DNA of 24,942 nucleotides from a virus, in the IMG/VR virus record IMGVR_UViG_3300037063_000214; one strand, written 5' to 3'. Made by a program: the position numbers and the translations under genes. The notes below the pieces were generated by a model. That model saw only the letters and a program-made list of their open reading frames with translations. It made no database searches and was not told the DNA's origin. Position 1 is the first letter of the stretch, and each line of letters starts with the position of its first letter. This document shows positions 2,895 to 16,900 of this stretch, piece by piece.

Positions 2895-3170
2895 ATGAGT
2901 AAACCACCAATAAGCGAGAAACCTCCTTGGGTTCAAGGGGCTAAAAACACCAAGAAACGAAAGAAGAAAGACAACGATGCGATTCTAAATCCTGTATACG
3001 ACGCAAAACTTGTGGAGAAATTGTGCGGAAACGCACGAAGGATAGTTCTTCAAGAAGGCAACGGGATGCTAACAAATGGTGTTCCAACGGAGTTATATTG
3101 GCACATCAATGGGTGCTCTGCTTGTGAAGAACTTCGCTCCAAGGCTAAACCACCAGAGATACCGTACTGA
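2895..3170 (+). CDS. Hypothetical 91-aa basic protein with a KKRKKK motif.
   Basis: ATG is preceded by an aggga SD. It lies downstream of copy 2 of the 31-bp box. Confidence 0.55.
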   Translation: MSKPPISEKPPWVQGAKNTKKRKKKDNDAILNPVYDAKLVEKLCGNARRIVLQEGNGMLTNGVPTELYWHINGCSACEELRSKAKPPEIPY

Positions 3171-3210
3171 GGTGTAACGCATCATGGCCGGGACTGTGAT
3201 CAGGAGGAAT

Positions 3211-3498
3211 ATGAACAAGCCGATTATTCTCATTGTAGCACTGAGATACGAAATTGATGGTGATTTAGAAGATGCGAAACGTATGTTGTCTAGAGCTTAT
3301 GCTCCGCGTGAGGGAAGAGTTGAAAGTGCAAGTAGCCACAAAGCTACAGCAACATGCATATCAATGCAGGCTGAAATTGAGGAGATGCAAGAAGATATGT
3401 GTGAAGTTAGGAATGGTGTTGGATATGCCTACCTACAGGTCCCTTACCCAGCGGGGGCAGCTGGCGTGCAGCAACAAAAGCAGAGGAAGAAGAAATAG
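3211..3498 (+). CDS. Hypothetical protein. The likely true start is the internal ATG, which has a strong SD.
   Basis: caggaggaat-ATG at 3211. The ORF-track start at 3184 has no RBS. Confidence 0.55.
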   Translation: MNKPIILIVALRYEIDGDLEDAKRMLSRAYAPREGRVESASSHKATATCISMQAEIEEMQEDMCEVRNGVGYAYLQVPYPAGAAGVQQQKQRKKK

Positions 3499-8656: not shown

Positions 8657-8731
8657 CAGGGTATAGTGTTAATGGTAGCACCCTAGTTTCGGGAACTAGT
8701 AGTCTCAGATCATTCCTGAGTACCCTGACCA
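8657..8731 (+). tRNA. tRNA-Pro, anticodon CGG. It has Pro identity elements C1:G72 and A73. The T-loop is non-canonical, atcattc, with A54:U58 swapped.
   Basis: Acceptor cagggta/taccctg. D arm gtgt/gcac with GG in the loop. Anticodon stem ctagt/actag with loop ttCGGga. T stem ctcag/ctgag. ACCA. Confidence 0.6.
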
Positions 8732-8830
8732 GTTTACGGTGTAGCTCAGCCCGGTTTAGAGCAAGCACACCGACTTTCGTTACTTTTTGTACAGCTATCA
8801 AGATTTTTTGTAAAAGGAGTTACTTTTAAG

Positions 8831-8905
8831 CAGGGCGTAGATCAGAGGAAGATCGCAAGTCTGGGGGACTTGAGGCCGGAATATCATAATTTCCCGCCCT
8901 GACCA
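8831..8905 (+). tRNA. tRNA-Pro, anticodon GGG. C1:G72 and A73. The T-loop is non-canonical, atcataa, again with A54:U58. One T-stem pair is a mismatch.
   Basis: Acceptor cagggcg/cgccctg. D arm gatc/gatc. Anticodon stem caagt/acttg with loop ctGGGgg. Then ACCA. Confidence 0.55.
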
Positions 8906-8927
8906 CAGTTTGAAAATTTAAATTTAA

Positions 8928-9013
8928 CTAGGTGTCGGGTAGTTTGGTTTAGCCCACATGCCTTGGGCGCATGTCTCGAAAGAGAATCGCAGGTTCAAAT
9001 CCTGCCACCTAGA
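8928..9013 (+). tRNA. tRNA-Pro-like, anticodon TGG. C1:G72 and A73, but with a class-II-like 15-nt variable-arm hairpin (tctc-gaaa-gaga). No CCA is encoded.
   Basis: Acceptor ctaggtg/cacctag is perfect. D arm gggt/gccc. Anticodon stem catgc/gcatg with loop ctTGGgc. T arm gcagg-ttcaaat-cctgc is canonical. Confidence 0.5.
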
Positions 9014-9079
9014 CATTGGCGACTGTCAGCCGTTAGTAAGTCTGACTTAAAGGCGCATAGAGCGCAGTCGCACTTTTTT

Positions 9080-9341: not shown

Positions 9342-9530
9342 ATGAAATATATTTATGAAGATCACGAGAAGCATACCACATGGGAATGTGAAGCCGAGGA
9401 TTTGCTTGCAGCGGATAAACTCTATGAAGCCGCTGGATGTAGGATGAGTGAAAACGCAAAAAGAAAAAAATCTATGCCTAATGATGTAGGGGCATGGTCA
9501 CCCGATTGGGCGTGTAACAAAAAGGCATAA
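9342..9530 (+). CDS. Hypothetical small protein.
   Basis: ATG lies 2 nt after the upstream stop. Confidence 0.4.
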   Translation: MKYIYEDHEKHTTWECEAEDLLAADKLYEAAGCRMSENAKRKKSMPNDVGAWSPDWACNKKA

Positions 9531-9558
9531 TAGGTTTATTCCAACTAATGGAGGAAGT

Positions 9559-10219
9559 ATGATTATCGAAATTAGAGCGGCTGAAGGCGGACAGGACGCA
9601 AAATTACTGGTCGAAGATCAAATGACCATCTACGCGAGGTTGGCGATACGGAGGGGTCTTTGAGTTTGATGTTACCGAACAACGCCCAGGTATAGCTATC
9701 CTGCGCATTACAGGGGCTACAGCGCCTCAAGTCTTCGCTAACGAGGCAGGAGGTCACCGTTTTCAGAGAATTCCTCCCACGGAGCGTAGCGGTAGAGTTC
9801 AAACCAGTACAATTACTGTGGCTGTTTTTGATGAACCGGAAGTTGCTGCTTTTGCCGTATCCCCAAATGATTTGGCATGGGAGACAATGCGCAGCGGGGG
9901 TAAGGGCGGTCAAAACGCCAATAAACTGGAAACAAAAATACGCTTAAAACATAAACCTACAGGATTAGTCGTGGTTTGCGAATCAGAACGTAGCCAAAAA
10001 AGAAATAAAGACACGGCCTTAGCTGTCCTTACAGCACGTTTGTACGCTGCTGATAAGGATAAAAAAGCTGAAGCTGCTACTACGGATAGGCGACAACAAA
10101 TAGGAACGGGACAACGAGGAGATAAACGCCGTACAATACGAGAAAAAGATGGAAAAGTCGTAGACCATATCACCGGTCAAAAATGGCGTTATTCTGATTA
10201 TGTAAAAGGCATTTGGTAA
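9559..10219 (+). CDS. Class-I release-factor homologue lacking domain 1, of the RF-H/PrfH type. The GGQ motif is present. Translation requires a +1 frameshift at CTT-TGA (9658-9663). Frame 1 covers 9559-9660 and frame 2 covers 9662-10219.
   Basis: Frame 1 reads MIIEIRAAEGGQDAKLLVEDQMTIYARLAIRRGL and then TGA. The +1 frame continues EFDVTEQRPG...GGHRFQRIPPTERSGRVQTSTITVAV...SGGKGGQNANKLETKIRLKHKPTGLVVVCESERSQKRNKDTALAVLTARL...DHITGQKW. Both parts align colinearly with RF1 domains 2-4. There is no start codon in the second frame between its upstream stop at 9623-9625 and the shift site. A GGAGGGG SD-like element sits just before CTT TGA G, as in prfB. Confidence 0.75.
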
Positions 10220-10222
10220 AAA

Positions 10223-10834
10223 ATGGAACAATATCCACATATCGAAGGCAGTACAAAGGCTCCTATAGGAGAACCGTGCATCGCTTTTTATAAGTACGAT
10301 GGTAGTAATCTGCGCTTCGAATGGAGCCCTAAAAAAGGCTGGCATAAGTTTGGCACCAGAAAAGAACTTTTTGACGCTCGCCATCCTTTGTGGTCTCAAG
10401 CCCTTCCCTTGTTTTTAGAGTTTGGAGATGAGATTGTAAAACGAGTGAAAGCATCGGATTGGCGATTGAAAGGTATCCAACGAATTACTGTTTTTTGTGA
10501 ATTCTTTGGACCTAGCAGTTTTGCCGGAATTCATGATGAAAAAGAGCCTAAAGAATTGCGTTTGATCGATGTATACCTTTTCAAAAAAGGTATGATGCCA
10601 GCGAAGCAATTTGTAGAAATTTTTGGAGATATGCCCCAGGCAGCACAGGTAATTTATCAGGGAAATTTGACTAAGCAATTCATAGATGATGTGCGCTTTG
10701 GGGCTTATTCTGTGAATGAGGGCGTGGTCGCTAAGGGCGCTGATTTTCGGGTAAAAATAAAAACTGCTGCTTACTTCAAAAAATTGAATGAACGGCTCCC
10801 AGAGTTAGCGAATGCCTTTGATTGTGAGTATTAG
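10223..10834 (+). CDS. Minimal ATP-dependent RNA ligase of the Rnl2 family. Adenylyltransferase core only, 203 aa.
   Basis: Motif I KYDGSN (KxxGxN). Motif III ITVFCEFFGPSSFAG (compare Rnl2 VFGEFAGPG). Motif IV EGVVAK. Motif V RVKIKT. It starts 4 nt after the release-factor stop. Confidence 0.75.
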   Translation: MEQYPHIEGSTKAPIGEPCIAFYKYDGSNLRFEWSPKKGWHKFGTRKELFDARHPLWSQALPLFLEFGDEIVKRVKASDWRLKGIQRITVFCEFFGPSSFAGIHDEKEPKELRLIDVYLFKKGMMPAKQFVEIFGDMPQAAQVIYQGNLTKQFIDDVRFGAYSVNEGVVAKGADFRVKIKTAAYFKKLNERLPELANAFDCEY

Positions 10835-10844
10835 ACTCTGTACG

Positions 10845-11110
10845 AGTTTGTGCTAATACGAGGTGCGGAGTTCCATAGATTTAGGCGGAACAAGACCTAA
10901 TTTCGGAACTCTACTGGCGACGGTCAGAGTTACCTCGTAGCACAATTTCCCAAACAGATACTTGTCTGGGAGAACTTGAGGACTCAGTGAGCCTCAGGTG
11001 GGGCATATTGGTGGACCCCTGTCCTTCGGGACTTAATCTGGCGGCCCAAGACGAGGAGTCAAGGGCTTAAAGAATCCTAGATTTTTAGTCTGGGAGCATC
11101 AAGCAGTATT
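10845..11110 (+). ncRNA. Structured non-coding region and candidate ncRNA. It has a long closing helix (gtgctaatacgaggt / acctcgtagcac), nested hairpins, and a gtcc-ttcg-ggac tetraloop hairpin.
   Basis: No ORF. Multiple compensatory stems were read by eye. Function unknown. Confidence 0.3.
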
Positions 11111-11172
11111 TTTTCAATTGGTGTATTCACCGTTTGCAGATTTGTACCGCTGGGGTTAATAAGGACGGTTGG

Positions 11173-11189
11173 TATGGAAAGTATAGGGA
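11173..11189 (+). repeat. Direct repeat atggaaagtataggga(c). A second copy lies at 11299-11316. The pair flanks tRNA-Met.
   Basis: A 16-nt exact match occurs 126 bp downstream. The second copy forms the hairpin tatag-ggaa-ctata just upstream of tnpB. Confidence 0.6.
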
Positions 11190-11211
11190 CTTGGTAAAAT
11201 TTTTTATTTAC

Positions 11212-11290
11212 GCCAGTGTAGCATAGTCCGGCCTAATGCGCTTCGCTCATAACGAAGAGATCGGTGGTTCAAATCCACCCGCTGGTACCA
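11212..11290 (+). tRNA. tRNA-Met (elongator type), or tRNA-Ile2 if lysidinylated. Anticodon CAT. CCA is encoded.
   Basis: Acceptor gccagtg/cgctggt with two G-U pairs. D arm gcat/atgc. Anticodon stem cttcg/cgaag with loop ctCATaa. T arm ggtgg-ttcaaat-ccacc. ACCA. Confidence 0.7.
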
Positions 11291-11349
11291 AAATTTTAAT
11301 GGAAAGTATAGGGAACTATATAGTTAACTCCCCCGGCTAGAACATAACA

Positions 11350-12477
11350 ATGCTGAGAACTTTTCAATGTCGGTTGTATCCAAACGCGACGCAGAGACAC
11401 GCGCTGGAGTTCGTCTTGCGTGACAACGCGGAGACGTACAACGCGGCTCTTGCAGAGCGCCGAGATGCATGGAAGTTGGAGCGCAAGGCGATCACCTATC
11501 GAATGCAACAGGACGAACTAACAGAACTACGCCGTGATGAACAATTTGCAAGAGTCGCCTGCGACATTCAACGTGATCCCTTGAGAAGGGTTGACCGAGC
11601 ATTCCAAGCGTTCTTTCGGCGTTGTAAAGCAGGCCAGAAGCCAGGCTTTCCTCGTTTTCGCTCTCATCTGCGCTACGACTCTTTTGGATTCAGTCTCCCA
11701 GTCGTGAATAGTGAACGTCTGAGGATTCCGAATGTGGGGCAGATCAAACTGCGCGGAGGCCGCAGCATTGCAGGTAAGGCGAAGTGTTGCACGGTCAAGC
11801 GAGACGGCAACCGTTGGACGGCTTCAGTCGTGTGCGACATTGGTCCGGCACCAGGGAAGCGTATGGTAACAAATGCTGTCGGAATAGATATGGGCCTGAC
11901 GACGCTCGCCACGCTGTCGGACGGGACGGAGATTGAGAACCCACGCTGGACCCGACAGCACGAAGACCTGATTGCAGCCGCGAATCGCCTACTGGCACGG
12001 AAGCATAAACGTTCGAAGAACCGCATCCGGGCGCGGGAAGCACTGCATCGCGCTCACCAGCGGGCCGCGAATGCCCGTCGCAACTATCTGCATCACGTTT
12101 CCAAATGGCTTGTGGGTAATTACGACCTGATCGCCCACGAAGCCTTAAACATTAAAGGCATGGCGCAAGGACATTTCGCCAAGTCGATTATGGATGCCGC
12201 ATGGAGCATTCTGCTGTCGCAAGTACGCTACAAGGCTGAGAGTGCCGGAGTGTACGCGATAGCGGTGAATCCACGCGGCACGTCACAAATGTGTTCGGGT
12301 TGCGGTCGAAACGTTCCGAAGAAACTGGCGCAGCGGGTGCATAGCTGTCCGCACTGCGGTCTAGTTCTGGGGCGTGACCACAATGCCGGACGGAACATTT
12401 TAGCGTTGGGGATCAACGCTGCGGGCGTAAGCCTTCAAAATCTACACACGACTCGGGTTAGGGAGTTATGTATATAA
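11350..12477 (+). CDS. tnpB: TnpB (IS200/IS605 family OrfB), an RNA-guided RuvC-like nuclease.
   Basis: N-terminal MLRTFQCRLYPNATQRHALE. RuvC-I GIDMGL. RuvC-II LIAHEALNIKGM. C-terminal zinc finger CSGCG...CPHCG followed by RDHNAGRNI. It is markedly more GC-rich than the flanking DNA. Confidence 0.9.
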   Translation: MLRTFQCRLYPNATQRHALEFVLRDNAETYNAALAERRDAWKLERKAITYRMQQDELTELRRDEQFARVACDIQRDPLRRVDRAFQAFFRRCKAGQKPGFPRFRSHLRYDSFGFSLPVVNSERLRIPNVGQIKLRGGRSIAGKAKCCTVKRDGNRWTASVVCDIGPAPGKRMVTNAVGIDMGLTTLATLSDGTEIENPRWTRQHEDLIAAANRLLARKHKRSKNRIRAREALHRAHQRAANARRNYLHHVSKWLVGNYDLIAHEALNIKGMAQGHFAKSIMDAAWSILLSQVRYKAESAGVYAIAVNPRGTSQMCSGCGRNVPKKLAQRVHSCPHCGLVLGRDHNAGRNILALGINAAGVSLQNLHTTRVRELCI

Positions 12478-12489
12478 GTCCCAAATATC

Positions 12490-12518
12490 TTGACAATTTT
12501 TTAATTATAGGTATTATA
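12490..12518 (+). promoter_or_regulatory. Sigma70-consensus promoter of the TTGACA / TATTAT family. It lies directly after the tnpB stop and points into the structured region.
   Basis: TTGACA at 12490-12495 and attata/tattat 17 nt downstream. Confidence 0.6.
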
Positions 12519-12743
12519 ATAATTGAAGCGTGGAACCCTTTTTACCTGACGAGGGAGTTTGTCGAAGTTGAGCCGCTCCTGCGATGATTGGCGGATCAAC
12601 AAGGTCTCGCAAGAGAGTGAGCTTAGCAAAGCTCCAACCGTGCAACAGGGTTCCCACTTTCTTATTTAAGTTTTGGGATAGGCAGTCGCCTTAAAGCGTC
12701 TGCCAATGGAAGTGCATAGCGCTTTCCGTTCCCAATAAAATTT

Positions 12744-12821
12744 GCGGGGATTAAGCTACGGTGCGCTTGGATGTCTCATAAGCATTCCTCTTAGGTGGTT
12801 CAACTCCACCCTCCGCTACCA
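12744..12821 (+). pseudogene. Degenerate tRNA-like element with a CAT anticodon arm. It is possibly a remnant or duplicate of tRNA-Met.
   Basis: D arm aagc/gctt. Anticodon stem gatgt/gcatt with loop ctCATaa. T arm ggtgg-ttcaact-ccacc. It ends in tACCA, but the acceptor stem pairs poorly. Confidence 0.35.
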
Positions 12822-12888
12822 TTTCAAAACCCCGACTTTGAATATCTTGTTATGAGTCAGTATTATATGTATAAGTTAAGGAGAAAAT

Positions 12889-13509
12889 ATGCAGCAAAAA
12901 TCTAGTTTTCAAAAAGCAATTGTAGCATTGATGTTGTGTGGAGTTATGACATTTGTAGGATGTACCGCATCATGGGTCAATACATTTGACACCGTTATCA
13001 GCGTTGCCGCTCCTGCTTTGACCGGTATTTTAGATGTTGCAGCGCTGGCAGATGGAAAGCCGGTAGATGCCGCCTTAGTTACAAAAATTAACGCCGATGC
13101 CGCAGCAGTTGAAACTCTCGCCAAAGATTTCGCCAATGCTTCGTCTTCAGCAGGGCCGGGACTTTGTTCACAACTTCAAGTAGGTATAACCACTTATGAA
13201 TCAGACTTGCCGCTAGTATTACAAGTAGCTCAAGTATCTGATCCGAATACAGAAGCAAAAATTGAAGCGTTATCAGCTTTGATTGTTAGCACATTCAATA
13301 GCATTGAGCCTTTAATTCCGAACTGTGCGGCTCCAGCTAAAACCACATTGGCGGTTGCGGTACCATTGTCAGTTAAGAATTTTGTGAATGACTATAACGC
13401 AGAAATGGTTAAGCCAACTGGAAATCCACAGGTAGATGCAGGAACAGCAAAACTTAAACTGCACACGAAATCAACTTTTATGCGCGTGGTAACATTTAGC
13501 TGGTTGTAA
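12889..13509 (+). CDS. Predicted secreted lipoprotein.
   Basis: Strong RBS taaggagaaaatATG. The signal peptide carries the lipobox FVGC (MQQKSSFQKAIVALMLCGVMTFVGC). A promoter-like caGTATTATat lies just upstream. Confidence 0.75.
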   Translation: MQQKSSFQKAIVALMLCGVMTFVGCTASWVNTFDTVISVAAPALTGILDVAALADGKPVDAALVTKINADAAAVETLAKDFANASSSAGPGLCSQLQVGITTYESDLPLVLQVAQVSDPNTEAKIEALSALIVSTFNSIEPLIPNCAAPAKTTLAVAVPLSVKNFVNDYNAEMVKPTGNPQVDAGTAKLKLHTKSTFMRVVTFSWL

Positions 13510-13919
13510 AGTTTCAAAGAGACATAATCCCGTCGCCCTGCTTGCTCGACTAAGGCGGTGTGGGGTGTTGAGACCGGTAAGTTTGACGACGATCCGGGTA
13601 CGAAGTCCCTATCCTTTCTGATAGGGTGGTTGCGGGTGTTCTAGTCCACGCAATGACTAGCTAGCATTTTAGAAGTGATTTTTGTGGCGGGCGCACACGC
13701 AGTGCGTAAGCGGAGGCTGCTGTACAATCTATAGTAGGGAGCCTCACTAATCCGACTGGCGTACGACGGTCGGGATATTGATGAGATGTATCGGAGCGGA
13801 AGCCCACAAAATATTTTCGTTGCAGCAATACCGCAACAAAAGGAAACTTAACCTTTATAGGATCGCGTTCCTACTGGGGTGGATGACGAGTTTCCTTTCC
13901 ATTTCTACCGTAACAGGTA

Positions 13920-13975
13920 AATCAAATGACCAAGAAGAGTTAATCTTGGTCATTTGATTTTATACGCAGTATTAA
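13920..13975 (+). promoter_or_regulatory. A perfect 16-bp hairpin whose 3' arm carries a -35-like TTGGTC. An 18-nt spacer separates it from gcagTATTAAg. This is a promoter-like element with an overlapping operator or terminator hairpin, upstream of the DNA polymerase gene.
   Basis: aatcaaatgaccaaga / tcttggtcatttgatt with an 8-nt loop. U-rich 3' flank. The -10 resembles the CAGTATTA promoter-family core. Confidence 0.45.
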
Positions 13976-13997
13976 GTCTGATAGAGGTTCAAAGAAC

Positions 13998-16900
13998 TTG
14001 TCAGACTTCAATCCCCCAATTATTGACCCCCTGGAAGTACCAGTCAAGCCTAAAAGAAAGCGTAAGCTTGCTTCCCCTCCATCCAAGGTAAAGAAACCAA
14101 AAGTAGCTCGGGATCTTCGTTCAGTTTTCCTTGAAAAATTAAAAGAAATTTCAGTTGAAAAAATCAAGAAACCTTGGATGGCAGAAAAAGTTTTTCGATT
14201 AATTAATACTACATCTGAGTTAGAAACTTGGGTAGAAAAAGTCTTAACTGATAAGTCTCAATTCCACACTCAATTTAAGCATACATGCCCAGTCTTGGCG
14301 GTTGATACAGAAACCACTAGCTTAGATACTCGTATCTTTTCTACTCTTCAACAACTACCTAGCGGGGAATCAGAACTTCAATATGAAGTGAAAGTTGAAA
14401 TTGCAGGAGTATGTCTGTCTGTAAATGGTATCGAAGGTGTGTACATTCCCATCAACCATGAAAGCGGAAGCAATATTCCACGAGCTGATGCGGCTCGTAT
14501 TTTACAACGATTATTTGATAACTGCCATTTGATTTTCTACAATGGTAAGTTTGATCGTGAAGTGTTACGTATTACTTTGGGTATCAATTTCAGACCCTAT
14601 CCATTTTTTGAAGATGTTCAAGTACTGCAATATATCAATGACCCCAAAGCAGATTTAGGGAAGTCTGGTACTTGGGCTGGGGATAGCGGCACATTAAAAA
14701 AATTGTCAGAAAGTAAGCTGGGAATTGAACAGATTGAAATTAAAGAAATTGCCAAAGTACGAGCGCATGTTTGGAATCCGCTTACTCAAAAAAATTCCTT
14801 GAAGATGCAAGTTGTACCCTTTACTTGGGTACCTCCAGAAATAGCTTTGTGGTACGCCGCAGCTGACGCCATATGTACCTGGTTACTCTGGGATAAGATG
14901 AAAGATTTGGCTCGTAGTAGAGACCTAGTTCATCATATTGACCATGAGTTAGTAGATTCTTTATCTTATGTGGAGCGGCAAAGATTTTTGATAGATGTGG
15001 ATCGTCAACGCCGTACCACTCGCTGGCACACAAGAAAAACTCAAGAATTACGAGATGAACTAGGTCAGATGGCGAAAGATGCTGGTTGGGTTAGCCCCAC
15101 CGCAGATGATGAAGACAAAGGCGTATTTAATCCTAGTTCTACAAAGCAATTGGGACCTTTGCTATTCAAGTTGATGGGTTTTAAACCTTATCGGATGACG
15201 GATAAAAACCAAGCATCTACTGACAAAGAAACGCTTCAAGAGTTGGTAAAAGATAACCCGGATAATGAATTTCTTAAGACGCTTCAAGAATATAGAGAGC
15301 TTGCGGCTCTACATCCCGGCAATTTACGTTATGATACCAAAGATAATAGTGCTCGGTTATATTTGAAACAGAATGTAGTAGCTGGTGGAAGATTATCAGG
15401 TTCTGGTGGTAAGTTTGAAAAAGATGGAGGCTTGCAATGGAATCCTCAGGGCGTAAAAAAACTGGAAGAGGATGATTTTTGGCGTGTGTACGGTAATGTA
15501 TTGGAGCCCGATTCTGTTCCTGAGTATGATATTGAAGCGTATACTGAAGAGGATTTACACCCGTCCTGCTTTCAAGAAGATGGAGATAAACGAGAGAAAG
15601 CCCCAGGGATCATAAAAAATCACATAGGATTGTACCAAGATTACGCCATTTGTCTTGTGCCTAAATGTACATCTTGCGCTGATAAATTCGGTATTCTTAT
15701 ACCAGATACTTCTTTAGACGCGAATCAGGTAGTTAACCTGCGTGTGCTATTCGTAGCATCACCCGGTTGGACCTTCTTTTCTATCGATTATCAAAATATC
15801 GAAGTTCGTACAGCGGCTAATTTATCGAAAGAGCCTGAATTGGAAAACATCTTCCTCTTAGGTGATGGAGATCATCACGCCCTTACCGCATCTAAAGTTT
15901 TCCCTGAATATAATGACCCTAAAAGTAAAATGTATAGGTCTAAGTCTCTTCGTGCCATTGCAAAAATTATTAACTTCGCTCTCCAATATGGCGGCACTTC
16001 TCACGCTATTTACAAAAATATGGTGAAGAATGATCCGACCATCACTAAGGAAAAAGCGGAAGAGATGGTTACGAAATATTGGGCTGGCGTTCCTAAATTT
16101 AAAGAATGGTGCGAAGGAAGACAAGCACGGGCGCGGGATGCATTTGTTAGTGAGACAGCTACGGGGCGTGTTATCAACTTTAAATCTGCTATGGAAGCTG
16201 AACATCTACATGTTCCCACCAGAGATGAAAGAAGCAGGTTGAGTCAATACTATGAGTGGAACAAAGAAGCCAAGAAAGCTAAAGCGGATCAAAACTCCGA
16301 TAGAGAGATGAAGTACCGTAAGGCAGCGGATAATTTATTTAAGAACCTAGATACAGGAGTACGTAACGCCATAGAATACAATAAATTCTTGGGGTATATT
16401 CAACGGGTGGCTGTTAATTGCCCCGTACAAGGATTATCTGGGGATTTCATGCGCATCGCAATTAACCGTATAAAAAAGTGGGTGGAGAAAGACCCGCAAA
16501 TTCAAAGGGTATTTCGTTTTCACGGGTCTGTACATGATGAGATTGATATCAGTATTAAAAATGAATATGTGCCCTTTATCTTACCTCGTCTTACCCGATT
16601 AATGAAGTTACGTAAATATCATAAAAAGATGGATTGGAATGTTCCTATTGAGTGTGATGCTGAATATGGGCATAGCTGGGATGTAGATTATAATGTTACA
16701 GACAAAAAATTTCCAGCGGCTTACACCCATATCCCGGGCTGGGAGTCTTATGTACCCTCAGATTTTGATATGAAGACTGTAAAGAATCTTTATCAGGCTT
16801 TTATATCGGGGGATGATGTTAGAAAAGAAAAAGCCAAGAATTGGATTACTGAAATATTGCATTCAAAAGTGCAACAATCAGTGAAGACTTTATTTGAGTC

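Follow-up and report, generated by a model that had tools for sequence, protein, structure and literature searches.

The stretch of viral DNA analysed here, IMG/VR virus record IMGVR_UViG_3300037063_000214, is 24,942 nucleotides (nt) long; we call it the window, and all coordinates given without a contig name refer to its + strand. Between positions 11311 and 12482, it carries a mobile element of 1172 bp (GGGAAC...AGTCCC) with a tnpB gene. We consider it probable that this element is a non-autonomous cassette of the IS1595 type, i.e., a DDE type, with tnpB and an omegaRNA as its cargo, and that it would be mobilised in trans and may be capable of homing. The assignment to a non-autonomous IS1595-type cassette is made because the same terminal repeats bound elements that do encode a transposase, while the element has none of its own. 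It was inserted recently, at the 8-mer AAAGTATA in a phage tRNA cluster, and it is polymorphic in the phage population.

Boundaries, ends and family of the element

The limits of the element come from an alignment of the window to near-identical phage contigs from other metagenomes, which we found through their identical flanking proteins. Such a comparison with element-free relatives had been proposed in a preliminary description of this DNA, and it did fix both the exact boundaries (11311-12482) and the target site. Three alleles were found at the locus. Allele A, the empty one, is the majority and lacks tnpB (L134, L135, L137, L139-142, L144-147, and L149); its identity to the window is 100% up to 11311 and 99% from 12483 on, the homology stopping at 11311/11312 and restarting at 12483, and between these two flanks it holds a native segment of 361 nt, called X, which encodes an open reading frame (ORF) of 96 amino acids (aa). 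Allele B is that of the window and is shared by three contigs from independent samples, L138, L242, and L243. In allele C (L136), the element is followed by X, and the junctions of this allele also occur in three similar contigs. The empty site reads AATGGAAAGTATAGTTCCC in L134, i.e., AATGG AAAGTATA GTTCCC.

Element copies that are 99.4-100% identical were found at three different sites, with a length of 1172 bp, or 1174 bp at one of them. The TnpB protein of the window is encoded at a second site in an AT-rich context (L237, L240, and L241), with a perfect duplication of AAAATTAA, and at a third site in a context with a GC content of 0.55-0.59 (L239 and L244), with a perfect duplication of AAAAGAAT; a GC-rich contig holds an element copy of 99.7% identity that encodes the same protein. 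Pfam and PHROGs scans of the GC-rich context in L239 did not tell host from phage, giving a single PHROG match of unknown function. Within the window, GC content is 0.54-0.58 across the tnpB ORF and 0.38-0.46 in its surroundings (0.55 for the ORF as a whole vs 0.43 for the window). The recent horizontal acquisition that had been read from this difference is borne out by the polymorphism of the locus and by the 99.7% identical copy in the GC-rich contig. No tnpB is present in more distant relatives (L001 and L002, about 70% protein identity), which do carry several tRNA(CAT) genes, and GenBank phages gave no DNA match to window positions 9500-14500. We also observed that, in L235 and L238, the left flank of the phage (tRNA-Met...AAAGTATA) is joined across an identical element to the GC-rich right flank (AAAAGAAT tattttgc...); these contigs may be assembly chimeras or real recombinants.

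The element ends in 22-bp terminal inverted repeats, GGGAACTATATAGTTAACTCCC on the left (11311..11332) and GGGAGTTATGTATATAAGTCCC on the right (12461..12482), which are complementary at 18 of 22 positions. This pairing is kept across relatives, and each repeat is itself partly palindromic and could form a hairpin. The insertion target, which is also the left copy of the duplication, is AAAGTATA at 11303..11310, with G11302/A11303 as the conserved G|A discussed below. In L136, whose element copy lacks 2 nt of the right repeat, AAAGTATA stands on both sides of the element and constitutes an 8-bp target duplication at this very locus. Closer TnpB relatives were obtained from a protein database and a metagenome scan. 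Together with the copies at the other sites, they give perfect 8-bp duplications around TnpB-bearing elements for AAAGTATA (L136), AAAATTAA (L237), AAAAGAAT (L239), AAATACAA (L152), and AAAAGGAG (L153), and flanking 8-mers that match at 7 of 8 positions in L154, L151, and L020, i.e., duplications at 8 independent insertions in total.

Two other ways of drawing the ends were tried and discarded. A left end of the IS605 type, 8-12 nt longer and including GGAAAGTATA (L014 has a similar GGAAAGTCAA), was rejected because the empty site and the site-specific 8-mers flanking the closer relatives indicate that these bases come from the target. A duplication of 7 bp, with the A that follows TCCC counted as part of the element, was rejected since the duplicated 8-mers begin right after TCCC (L152, L153, and L239); the absence of a T before the left repeat likewise counts against it.

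We searched viral contigs for the repeat consensus GGGAMYTATATASWTAACTCC and paired the inverted copies. The pattern occurs in 87 viral contigs and bounds more than 45 elements of 224 bp to 2.9 kb; in a broader deduplicated set, 44 of the 58 TnpB-free elements have perfect AT-rich 8-bp duplications, and A/T-rich direct repeats of 8 bp are a signature of IS1595-family insertion sequences (PMC12561309). Same-repeat elements of 1.5-2 kb hold ORFs of 305-310 aa (L284, L248, L306, L307, L291, L320, and L295), for which the two that were scanned, those of L284 and L291, gave matches to Pfam DDE_Tnp_IS1595 (150 bits) and Zn_ribbon_IS1595: both ORFs match PF12762 and PF12760, that of L284 matches NF033547, and the score for NCBIfam transpos_IS1595 is 198.9 bits against a cutoff of 75. 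The transposase-bearing element of L284 (2206-4050) is identical to that of the window at 21 of 22 positions of the left repeat and 20 of 22 of the right one. Its kind of transposase would, judging from these repeats, move the tnpB element in trans. Viral contigs L245-L324 contain dozens of small same-repeat cassettes with 8-bp duplications (for example, L311 3167-3863, L261 1658-2462, L289 7892-8941, and L287 732-1800). According to Pfam, their cargo consists of orphan DNA methyltransferases, of C5, N6/N4, and Dam-like types; others have small uncharacterised ORFs. In L163 (about 1165-2370), a TnpB gene at 63% protein identity has different ends and is flanked on both sides by a 12-nt direct repeat, AAAGTAGAGTAA; neighbouring TnpB clades may likewise travel on elements that make target duplications.

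The preliminary description had taken the element for one of the IS605/OrfB type, and in its full form this explanation would make it an IS200/IS605 (IS1341-type) element with subterminal hairpins and a Y1 TnpA, the 16-nt repeat described below being its left end or a duplication, inserted at tRNA-Met with partial duplication of that gene. The protein is indeed homologous to ISDra2 TnpB and matches Pfam OrfB_IS605, and the inverted repeats, partly palindromic as they are, could be taken for such hairpins. We nevertheless find this explanation very improbable. The ends are inverted relative to each other and accompanied by 8-bp duplications at 8 independent sites, whereas elements of the IS200/IS605 and IS607 families lack both of these features (PMC13565253, PMC6188088); the same ends bound elements with an IS1595 transposase; the score for NCBIfam IS200_TnpB is below its cutoff; no TnpA was found in any element examined; and 13 nt of the repeat as well as both neighbouring tRNAs are present in element-free phages. 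The idea that this phage lineage domesticated the GC-rich block as a gene long ago, or else that the block is an artefact of assembly, deserves hardly any credence. The joins in L235 and L238 do indicate that the repeat can confuse assemblies, but the junctions of the window recur in L138, L242, and L243, those of allele C in L136 and three similar contigs, and the copies at three sites are 99.4-100% identical, while L001, L002, and most of the near-identical variants have no such block. We thus retain the IS1595-type cassette, whose ends are not of the IS605 type given the inverted repeats, the 8-bp duplications, and the sharing of these ends with IS1595 transposase elements.

TnpB, its predicted omegaRNA and the G|A flank rule

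The tnpB gene (11350..12477, +) is the sole long + strand ORF of the element, and its stop codon lies within the right inverted repeat. It encodes a 375-aa protein of the RNA-guided RuvC nuclease family that scores above all cutoffs of PF01385, PF07282, and PF12323 (OrfB_IS605 75.7 bits, Cas12f1-like_TNB 71.6, HTH_OrfB_IS605 29) and reaches 244.8 bits, against a cutoff of 100, with NCBIfam NF040570 guided_TnpB; with NCBIfam IS200_TnpB, it obtains 229.9 bits, under the cutoff of 425. Structures of ISDra2 TnpB match it with E=6e-51. The hallmarks of the family that had been noted at the outset, RuvC I/II/III and a zinc finger, are confirmed by these profile matches and by intact motifs: the split D-E-D triad is complete (D180 in GIDMG, E264 in AHEAL, and D343 in GRDHNA), and both CxxC pairs of the zinc finger are present (CSGC at 315 and CPHC at 333). 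The ISDra2 TnpB chains match the same residues, and the motifs align with those of an AI-designed nuclease whose length is that of ISDra2 TnpB. From its sequence, TnpB is predicted to be catalytically intact. The closest genomic TnpBs are found in metagenome-assembled genomes of Acidobacteriaceae (71% identity). Relatives were also found by tblastn in 418 GenBank phage records, a number that does not fit the earlier remark that such nucleases are not commonly reported in phages of the lytic type.

The predicted omegaRNA scaffold (12293..12482, +) overlaps tnpB at the gene's 3' end and terminates in the right inverted repeat, a position that matches where TnpB biology predicts it. A covariance model, R1, was built from 13 relatives with the window excluded, and it matches 12293-12483 with 198.9 bits (E=9e-51), a score much of which is plain sequence homology in coding sequence; over 12484-12830, it gave nothing better than E=2. 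Among 14 family members, conservation runs past the stop codon up to ...TCCC, and the sequences beyond are unrelated from site to site. Two adjacent hairpins (12403-12408/12414-12419 and 12420-12426/12431-12437, +) show covariation across relatives at 68-85% identity, with compensatory changes in 8 of 12 pairs and 93.5% of cells paired, values that are reached by 0-1 of 500 shuffles. By analogy with the known architecture of TnpB systems, we infer that the sequence from 12483 onward would act as the guide. The predicted guide segment (12483..12502, +) is AAATATCTTGACAATTTTTT, which is native phage DNA, overlaps the −35 box of a promoter described below, and is not a copy of the left 8-mer. One relative, L020 (TnpB 68% identity), has at 3120-3290 a tandem duplication of roughly the final 75 nt of the omegaRNA and right end, and its 8-mer with a 7-of-8 match to the left flank comes after the inner copy; this looks like a two-unit guide array or the remnant of a second element.

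In order to compare flanks, elements were oriented by tnpB, which gave n=16 distinct insertion sites to be set against 116 end contexts of TnpB-free same-repeat elements. At all 16 sites, a G stands just before the 8-mer, whose first base is A and whose second is A or T (G-A-W, W being A or T), while G|A is found at 24 of the 116 ends (21%) of TnpB-free elements (Fisher p=4e-10). The rule is one-sided, being restricted to the side upstream of tnpB, and this one-sidedness points to a target-adjacent motif (TAM) that borders the guide match when the allele is empty, since a symmetric DDE transposase would not impose such a rule. The G|A rule suggests a TAM filter and homing. TnpB and its omegaRNA would cut element-free alleles where G-A-W directly precedes the guide match; occupied alleles, which read ...TCCC-A-W and have lost the G, would be spared; and repair from the occupied genome would copy the element, for example, between phage genomes co-infecting one cell.

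The window copy differs from allele C by the loss of 369 bp to the right of the element, comprising the right copy of the duplication and X, and its predicted guide therefore now covers the −35 region of a native promoter. Its right flank reads AAATATCT|TGACA. The junction site of alleles A and C is GGGATG|AAATATCT, an AT-rich 8-mer preceded by G|A; both alleles carry GGGATG|AAATATCTTGACAATTTT, a perfect match to the predicted guide of the window, together with the motif, and the window has no such target. Alleles A and C would accordingly be expected to be cut and converted to B in mixed infections. X is absent from the window and is therefore dispensable, at least in some hosts; its ORF (L134 5315-5605) has its own ribosome-binding site and encodes a basic, Cys-containing protein with a marginal PHROG match. 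The most economical account of its loss would be either a second insertion at the junction site followed by recombination between the two element copies or an intramolecular transposition causing an adjacent deletion; a deletion at AAA microhomology is possible.

More tentatively, and with less than even confidence, we put forward that TnpB acts as a population-level filter or drive for a DDE transposon, that the window variant is a phage-against-phage gene drive, and that replaced right flanks, which concern 9 of 17 TnpB-bearing insertions and 12 of 58 other family members, are a by-product of nuclease breaks. TnpB cassettes would, under this proposal, persist solely after landing at G-A-W, such copies alone being able to cut and fill the empty allele; the loss of X would have re-aimed the guide at the promoter junction, and the window variant would cut A and C while being itself immune. 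Such a drive, if true, would remove the 96-aa gene too.

Two further explanations concern the role and the extent of the RNA. The omegaRNA had been tentatively placed in the 12380-12830 region, with a tRNA-like 3' end; that it lies in or reaches into 12484-12830 would agree with a structured region (z=-4.0) 3' of tnpB that ends in a tRNA-like fold, but the sequence from 12483 onward is 99-100% identical in phages that never bore the element and has its own consensus promoter, the sequences that follow ...TCCC in the relatives are unrelated, and the fit of R1 is confined to 12293-12483, its best score beyond being E=2. We find this placement scarcely credible. An IS1595-type cassette in which TnpB and the omegaRNA are passive or decaying cargo is a more serious contender, although we hold it to be rather unlikely; G|A would then stem from expression, from the needs of the omegaRNA 3' end, or from sampling. 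The same repeats carry DNA methyltransferases, and so cargo need not serve transposition; associations between DDE transposons and OMEGA systems (the name abbreviates obligate mobile element-guided activity) are rare and their benefit is questioned (PMC13565253); and the right repeat of L136 has lost 2 nt. Set against this are the complete catalytic triad and zinc finger, the compensatory changes that maintain the omegaRNA hairpins, and the one-sided G|A (16/16 vs 21%), as a TAM beside a guide match predicts.

A homing-capable cassette mobilised in trans, which we continue to prefer, also has points that weigh against it. There is no transposase match within 11311-12482 and no IS1595 transposase was found in the window; among the elements examined, none holds both a transposase and tnpB, and the shared repeats are the single line of evidence for mobilisation in trans. 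The coding-sequence share of the R1 score, mentioned above, belongs here as well, and the G|A rule may have a cause other than a TAM. A duplication of at least 7/8 is kept in 8 of 17 TnpB-bearing insertions vs 46 of 58 TnpB-free members (p=0.014). Right flanks of TnpB-bearing elements (that of the window at 12483 and those of L155, L158, L054, L160, L157, L014, L013, and L253) always have an A after ...TCCC, even where the duplication is missing, and those of the duplication-less copies are often GC-rich, unlike an IS1595 target. No target duplication surrounds the copy in the window, which has AAAGTATA on the left and AAATATCT on the right, and the history of this copy is a reconstruction from sister variants. 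Finally, the benefit of homing for a cut-and-paste DDE element is debated (PMC13565253).

Native phage DNA around the element

A direct repeat, two tRNAs, a promoter, and a structured RNA surround the element; they are native phage DNA and not parts of it, because they are also present in element-free variants. The 16-17-nt direct repeat of the preliminary description exists as an exact 16-nt sequence, ATGGAAAGTATAGGGA, in two copies, at 11174 and 11299, with tRNA-Met between them, the sole matches in the window with up to 3 mismatches allowed. Its interpretation as a left end or target duplication did not stand, as 13 of its nt (ATGGAAAGTATAG) are native and occur twice in element-free phages. 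The first copy (11174..11189, +) consists of the native ATGGAAAGTATAG followed by GGA and is present in the element-free L134; the second native copy (11299..11310, +) is ATGGAAAGTATA, the last 8 nt of which are the insertion target. The final three nt of the second 16-nt copy (GGA of GGGA) are the start of the left inverted repeat, a coincidental match.

The tRNA-Met(CAT) gene (11212..11290, +) was identified by ARAGORN, matches Rfam RF00005 with 63.7 bits, and is 100% identical in element-free variants. To the right of the element, a sigma-70-like promoter (12490..12517, +; TTGACA, 16-nt spacer, TATTAT; 11/12 consensus) is likewise identical in these variants, and the whole stretch 12483-13567 is 99% identical. 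It is followed by a native structured non-coding RNA or leader of 225 nt (12519..12743, +; minimum free energy −79.1 kcal/mol, z=-4.0) and by an atypical, also native tRNA(CAT) (12744..12817, +), for which ARAGORN draws a cloverleaf whose acceptor stem has 6 bp and whose T stem has 4 bp, both shortened. This last gene is below the Rfam tRNA threshold, with no RF00005 match at the gathering score and tRNA-Sec as its best match (22.1 bits, E=0.27); a similar odd tRNA(CAT) is found in the related phage L002 at 12034-12109. The promoter, the structured stretch, and the degenerate tRNA had all been located correctly beforehand. The insertion in or next to tRNA-Met with partial duplication that had been proposed to link the two tRNAs is contradicted by the element-free variants, which have both, and by the odd tRNA(CAT) of L002. 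At gathering and E-value thresholds, Rfam matches both non-coding stretches to tRNA only, and a blastn comparison of the non-coding flanks with related loci returned only tRNA similarity and a match to the left end. A hammerhead-like motif, CTGACGAG, at 12545-12552 was dropped as it has no Rfam support.

Relatives are contigs of jumbo phages of up to 405 kb, and the element lies within a translation and RNA-repair module (window 9818-10834, plus tRNA genes at 1614-2513 and 8657-9014). This module comprises an ArfB-like RF-1-domain protein (133 aa), an RNA-ligase-like protein (KxDG motif, weak PHROG RNA-ligase match), and nine tRNA genes, some of them unusually long, such as an 87-nt tRNA-Pro. 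Other parts of the region also vary. A segment of 225 nt (10825-11049) is absent from L136 and is dispensable; it takes in the final 10 nt of the RNA-ligase-like gene as well as most of 10835-11173, a GC-richer non-coding stretch with long-range complementarity and no Rfam match. At 13561-13567, most sister variants have about 630 nt more between a 206-aa gene and polA (L134 6676-7305), with tRNA-like fragments and a 105-aa ORF; this segment is missing in the window and in L138, and the indel is not bounded by IS1595-type repeats.

Comparison with known systems

OMEGA nucleases are known mainly from the IS200/IS605 and IS607 families, which excise without a scar, and their rarity and role with DDE transposons are open questions (PMC13565253). 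A single family of IS1595-type ends with many cargoes allows TnpB-bearing and TnpB-free elements to be compared directly, with an internal control, and it is this comparison that yields the TAM-like flank rule and G-A-W as a candidate short TAM. Public metagenomes contain this one phage locus in empty, filled, and rearranged form, which amounts to a population snapshot, and the nuclease is a compact one (375 aa) whose omegaRNA has defined predicted limits. For annotation, the lesson is that a match to Pfam OrfB_IS605 does not imply IS605 ends.

With the tnpB elements of the IS200/IS605 family (IS1341 group; ISDra2), the window element shares the protein family, the domain order, and the D-E-D and zinc-finger motifs, and, as with the omegaRNA of ISDra2, the predicted RNA overlaps the 3' end of the ORF, stops at the right end, and would take its guide from the flank. 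The G-A-W core of the flank would appear to resemble the GAT of the ISDra2 TAM, TTGAT (PMC13565253). IS200/IS605 elements have subterminal hairpins that differ between left and right and insert 3' of a fixed motif of 4-5 nt (PMC13565253), whereas the window element has terminal inverted repeats, an 8-bp duplication, an AT-rich 8-mer target, and no Y1 TnpA. Fanzor1/Fanzor2* in the cut-and-paste transposons of eukaryotes and viruses (PMC10711439) offer a parallel: there, too, the element is non-autonomous, with inverted repeats and duplications and a TnpB homologue as sole gene, in a large virus, and the inverted repeat forms part of the guide-RNA scaffold. Unlike Fanzor, the window element is prokaryotic (a phage, with Acidobacteria-type relatives), and its 8-bp duplication is variable beyond the first one or two bases and so not all of it can be fixed scaffold. 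Another parallel is offered by free-standing homing endonucleases of phage tRNA regions, such as T4 SegB (cited in PMC13565253), i.e., a nuclease gene in a phage tRNA cluster that is predicted to cut gene-free competitors and to spread by repair; here, unlike SegB, the nuclease is predicted to be RNA-guided, with targeting set by the flank, and its gene rides a transposon.

IS1595 derivatives that carry passengers or lack a transposase have been described as transporter IS and mobile insertion cassettes (Siguier et al. 2009, cited in PMC12561309). The window element has in common with IS1595 insertion sequences and their derivatives the shared inverted repeats, the A/T-rich 8-bp direct repeats, and the many cargo variants; it differs from the known derivatives in carrying an RNA-guided nuclease together with its guide RNA and in that the right repeat also serves as the omegaRNA terminus. 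Altae-Tran et al. (2023, PNAS, PMC10691335) described TnpBs associated with DDE transposases and inverted terminal repeats, as well as solo TnpBs bounded by the same ends, and a review lists ISL2, IS630, and IS1031 as partners, in associations said to be rare (PMC13565253). IS1595 is not named as a partner of TnpB in PMC10691335 or PMC13565253, and a literature search for IS1595 and TnpB found no such paper. As in those systems (PMC10691335), TnpB and the omegaRNA lie at most 250 bp from the transposon end, the ends are symmetrical inverted repeats, and, as for the solo TnpBs, they are nearly identical to those of transposase-bearing elements. Unlike in those systems, the partner here is IS1595, with an AT-rich 8-bp duplication, and the setting is a phage population in which empty, filled, and rearranged alleles coexist. 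DDE-linked TnpBs were thus already known, and what is added here is the IS1595 partner, the population snapshot, and the control provided by elements with the same ends.

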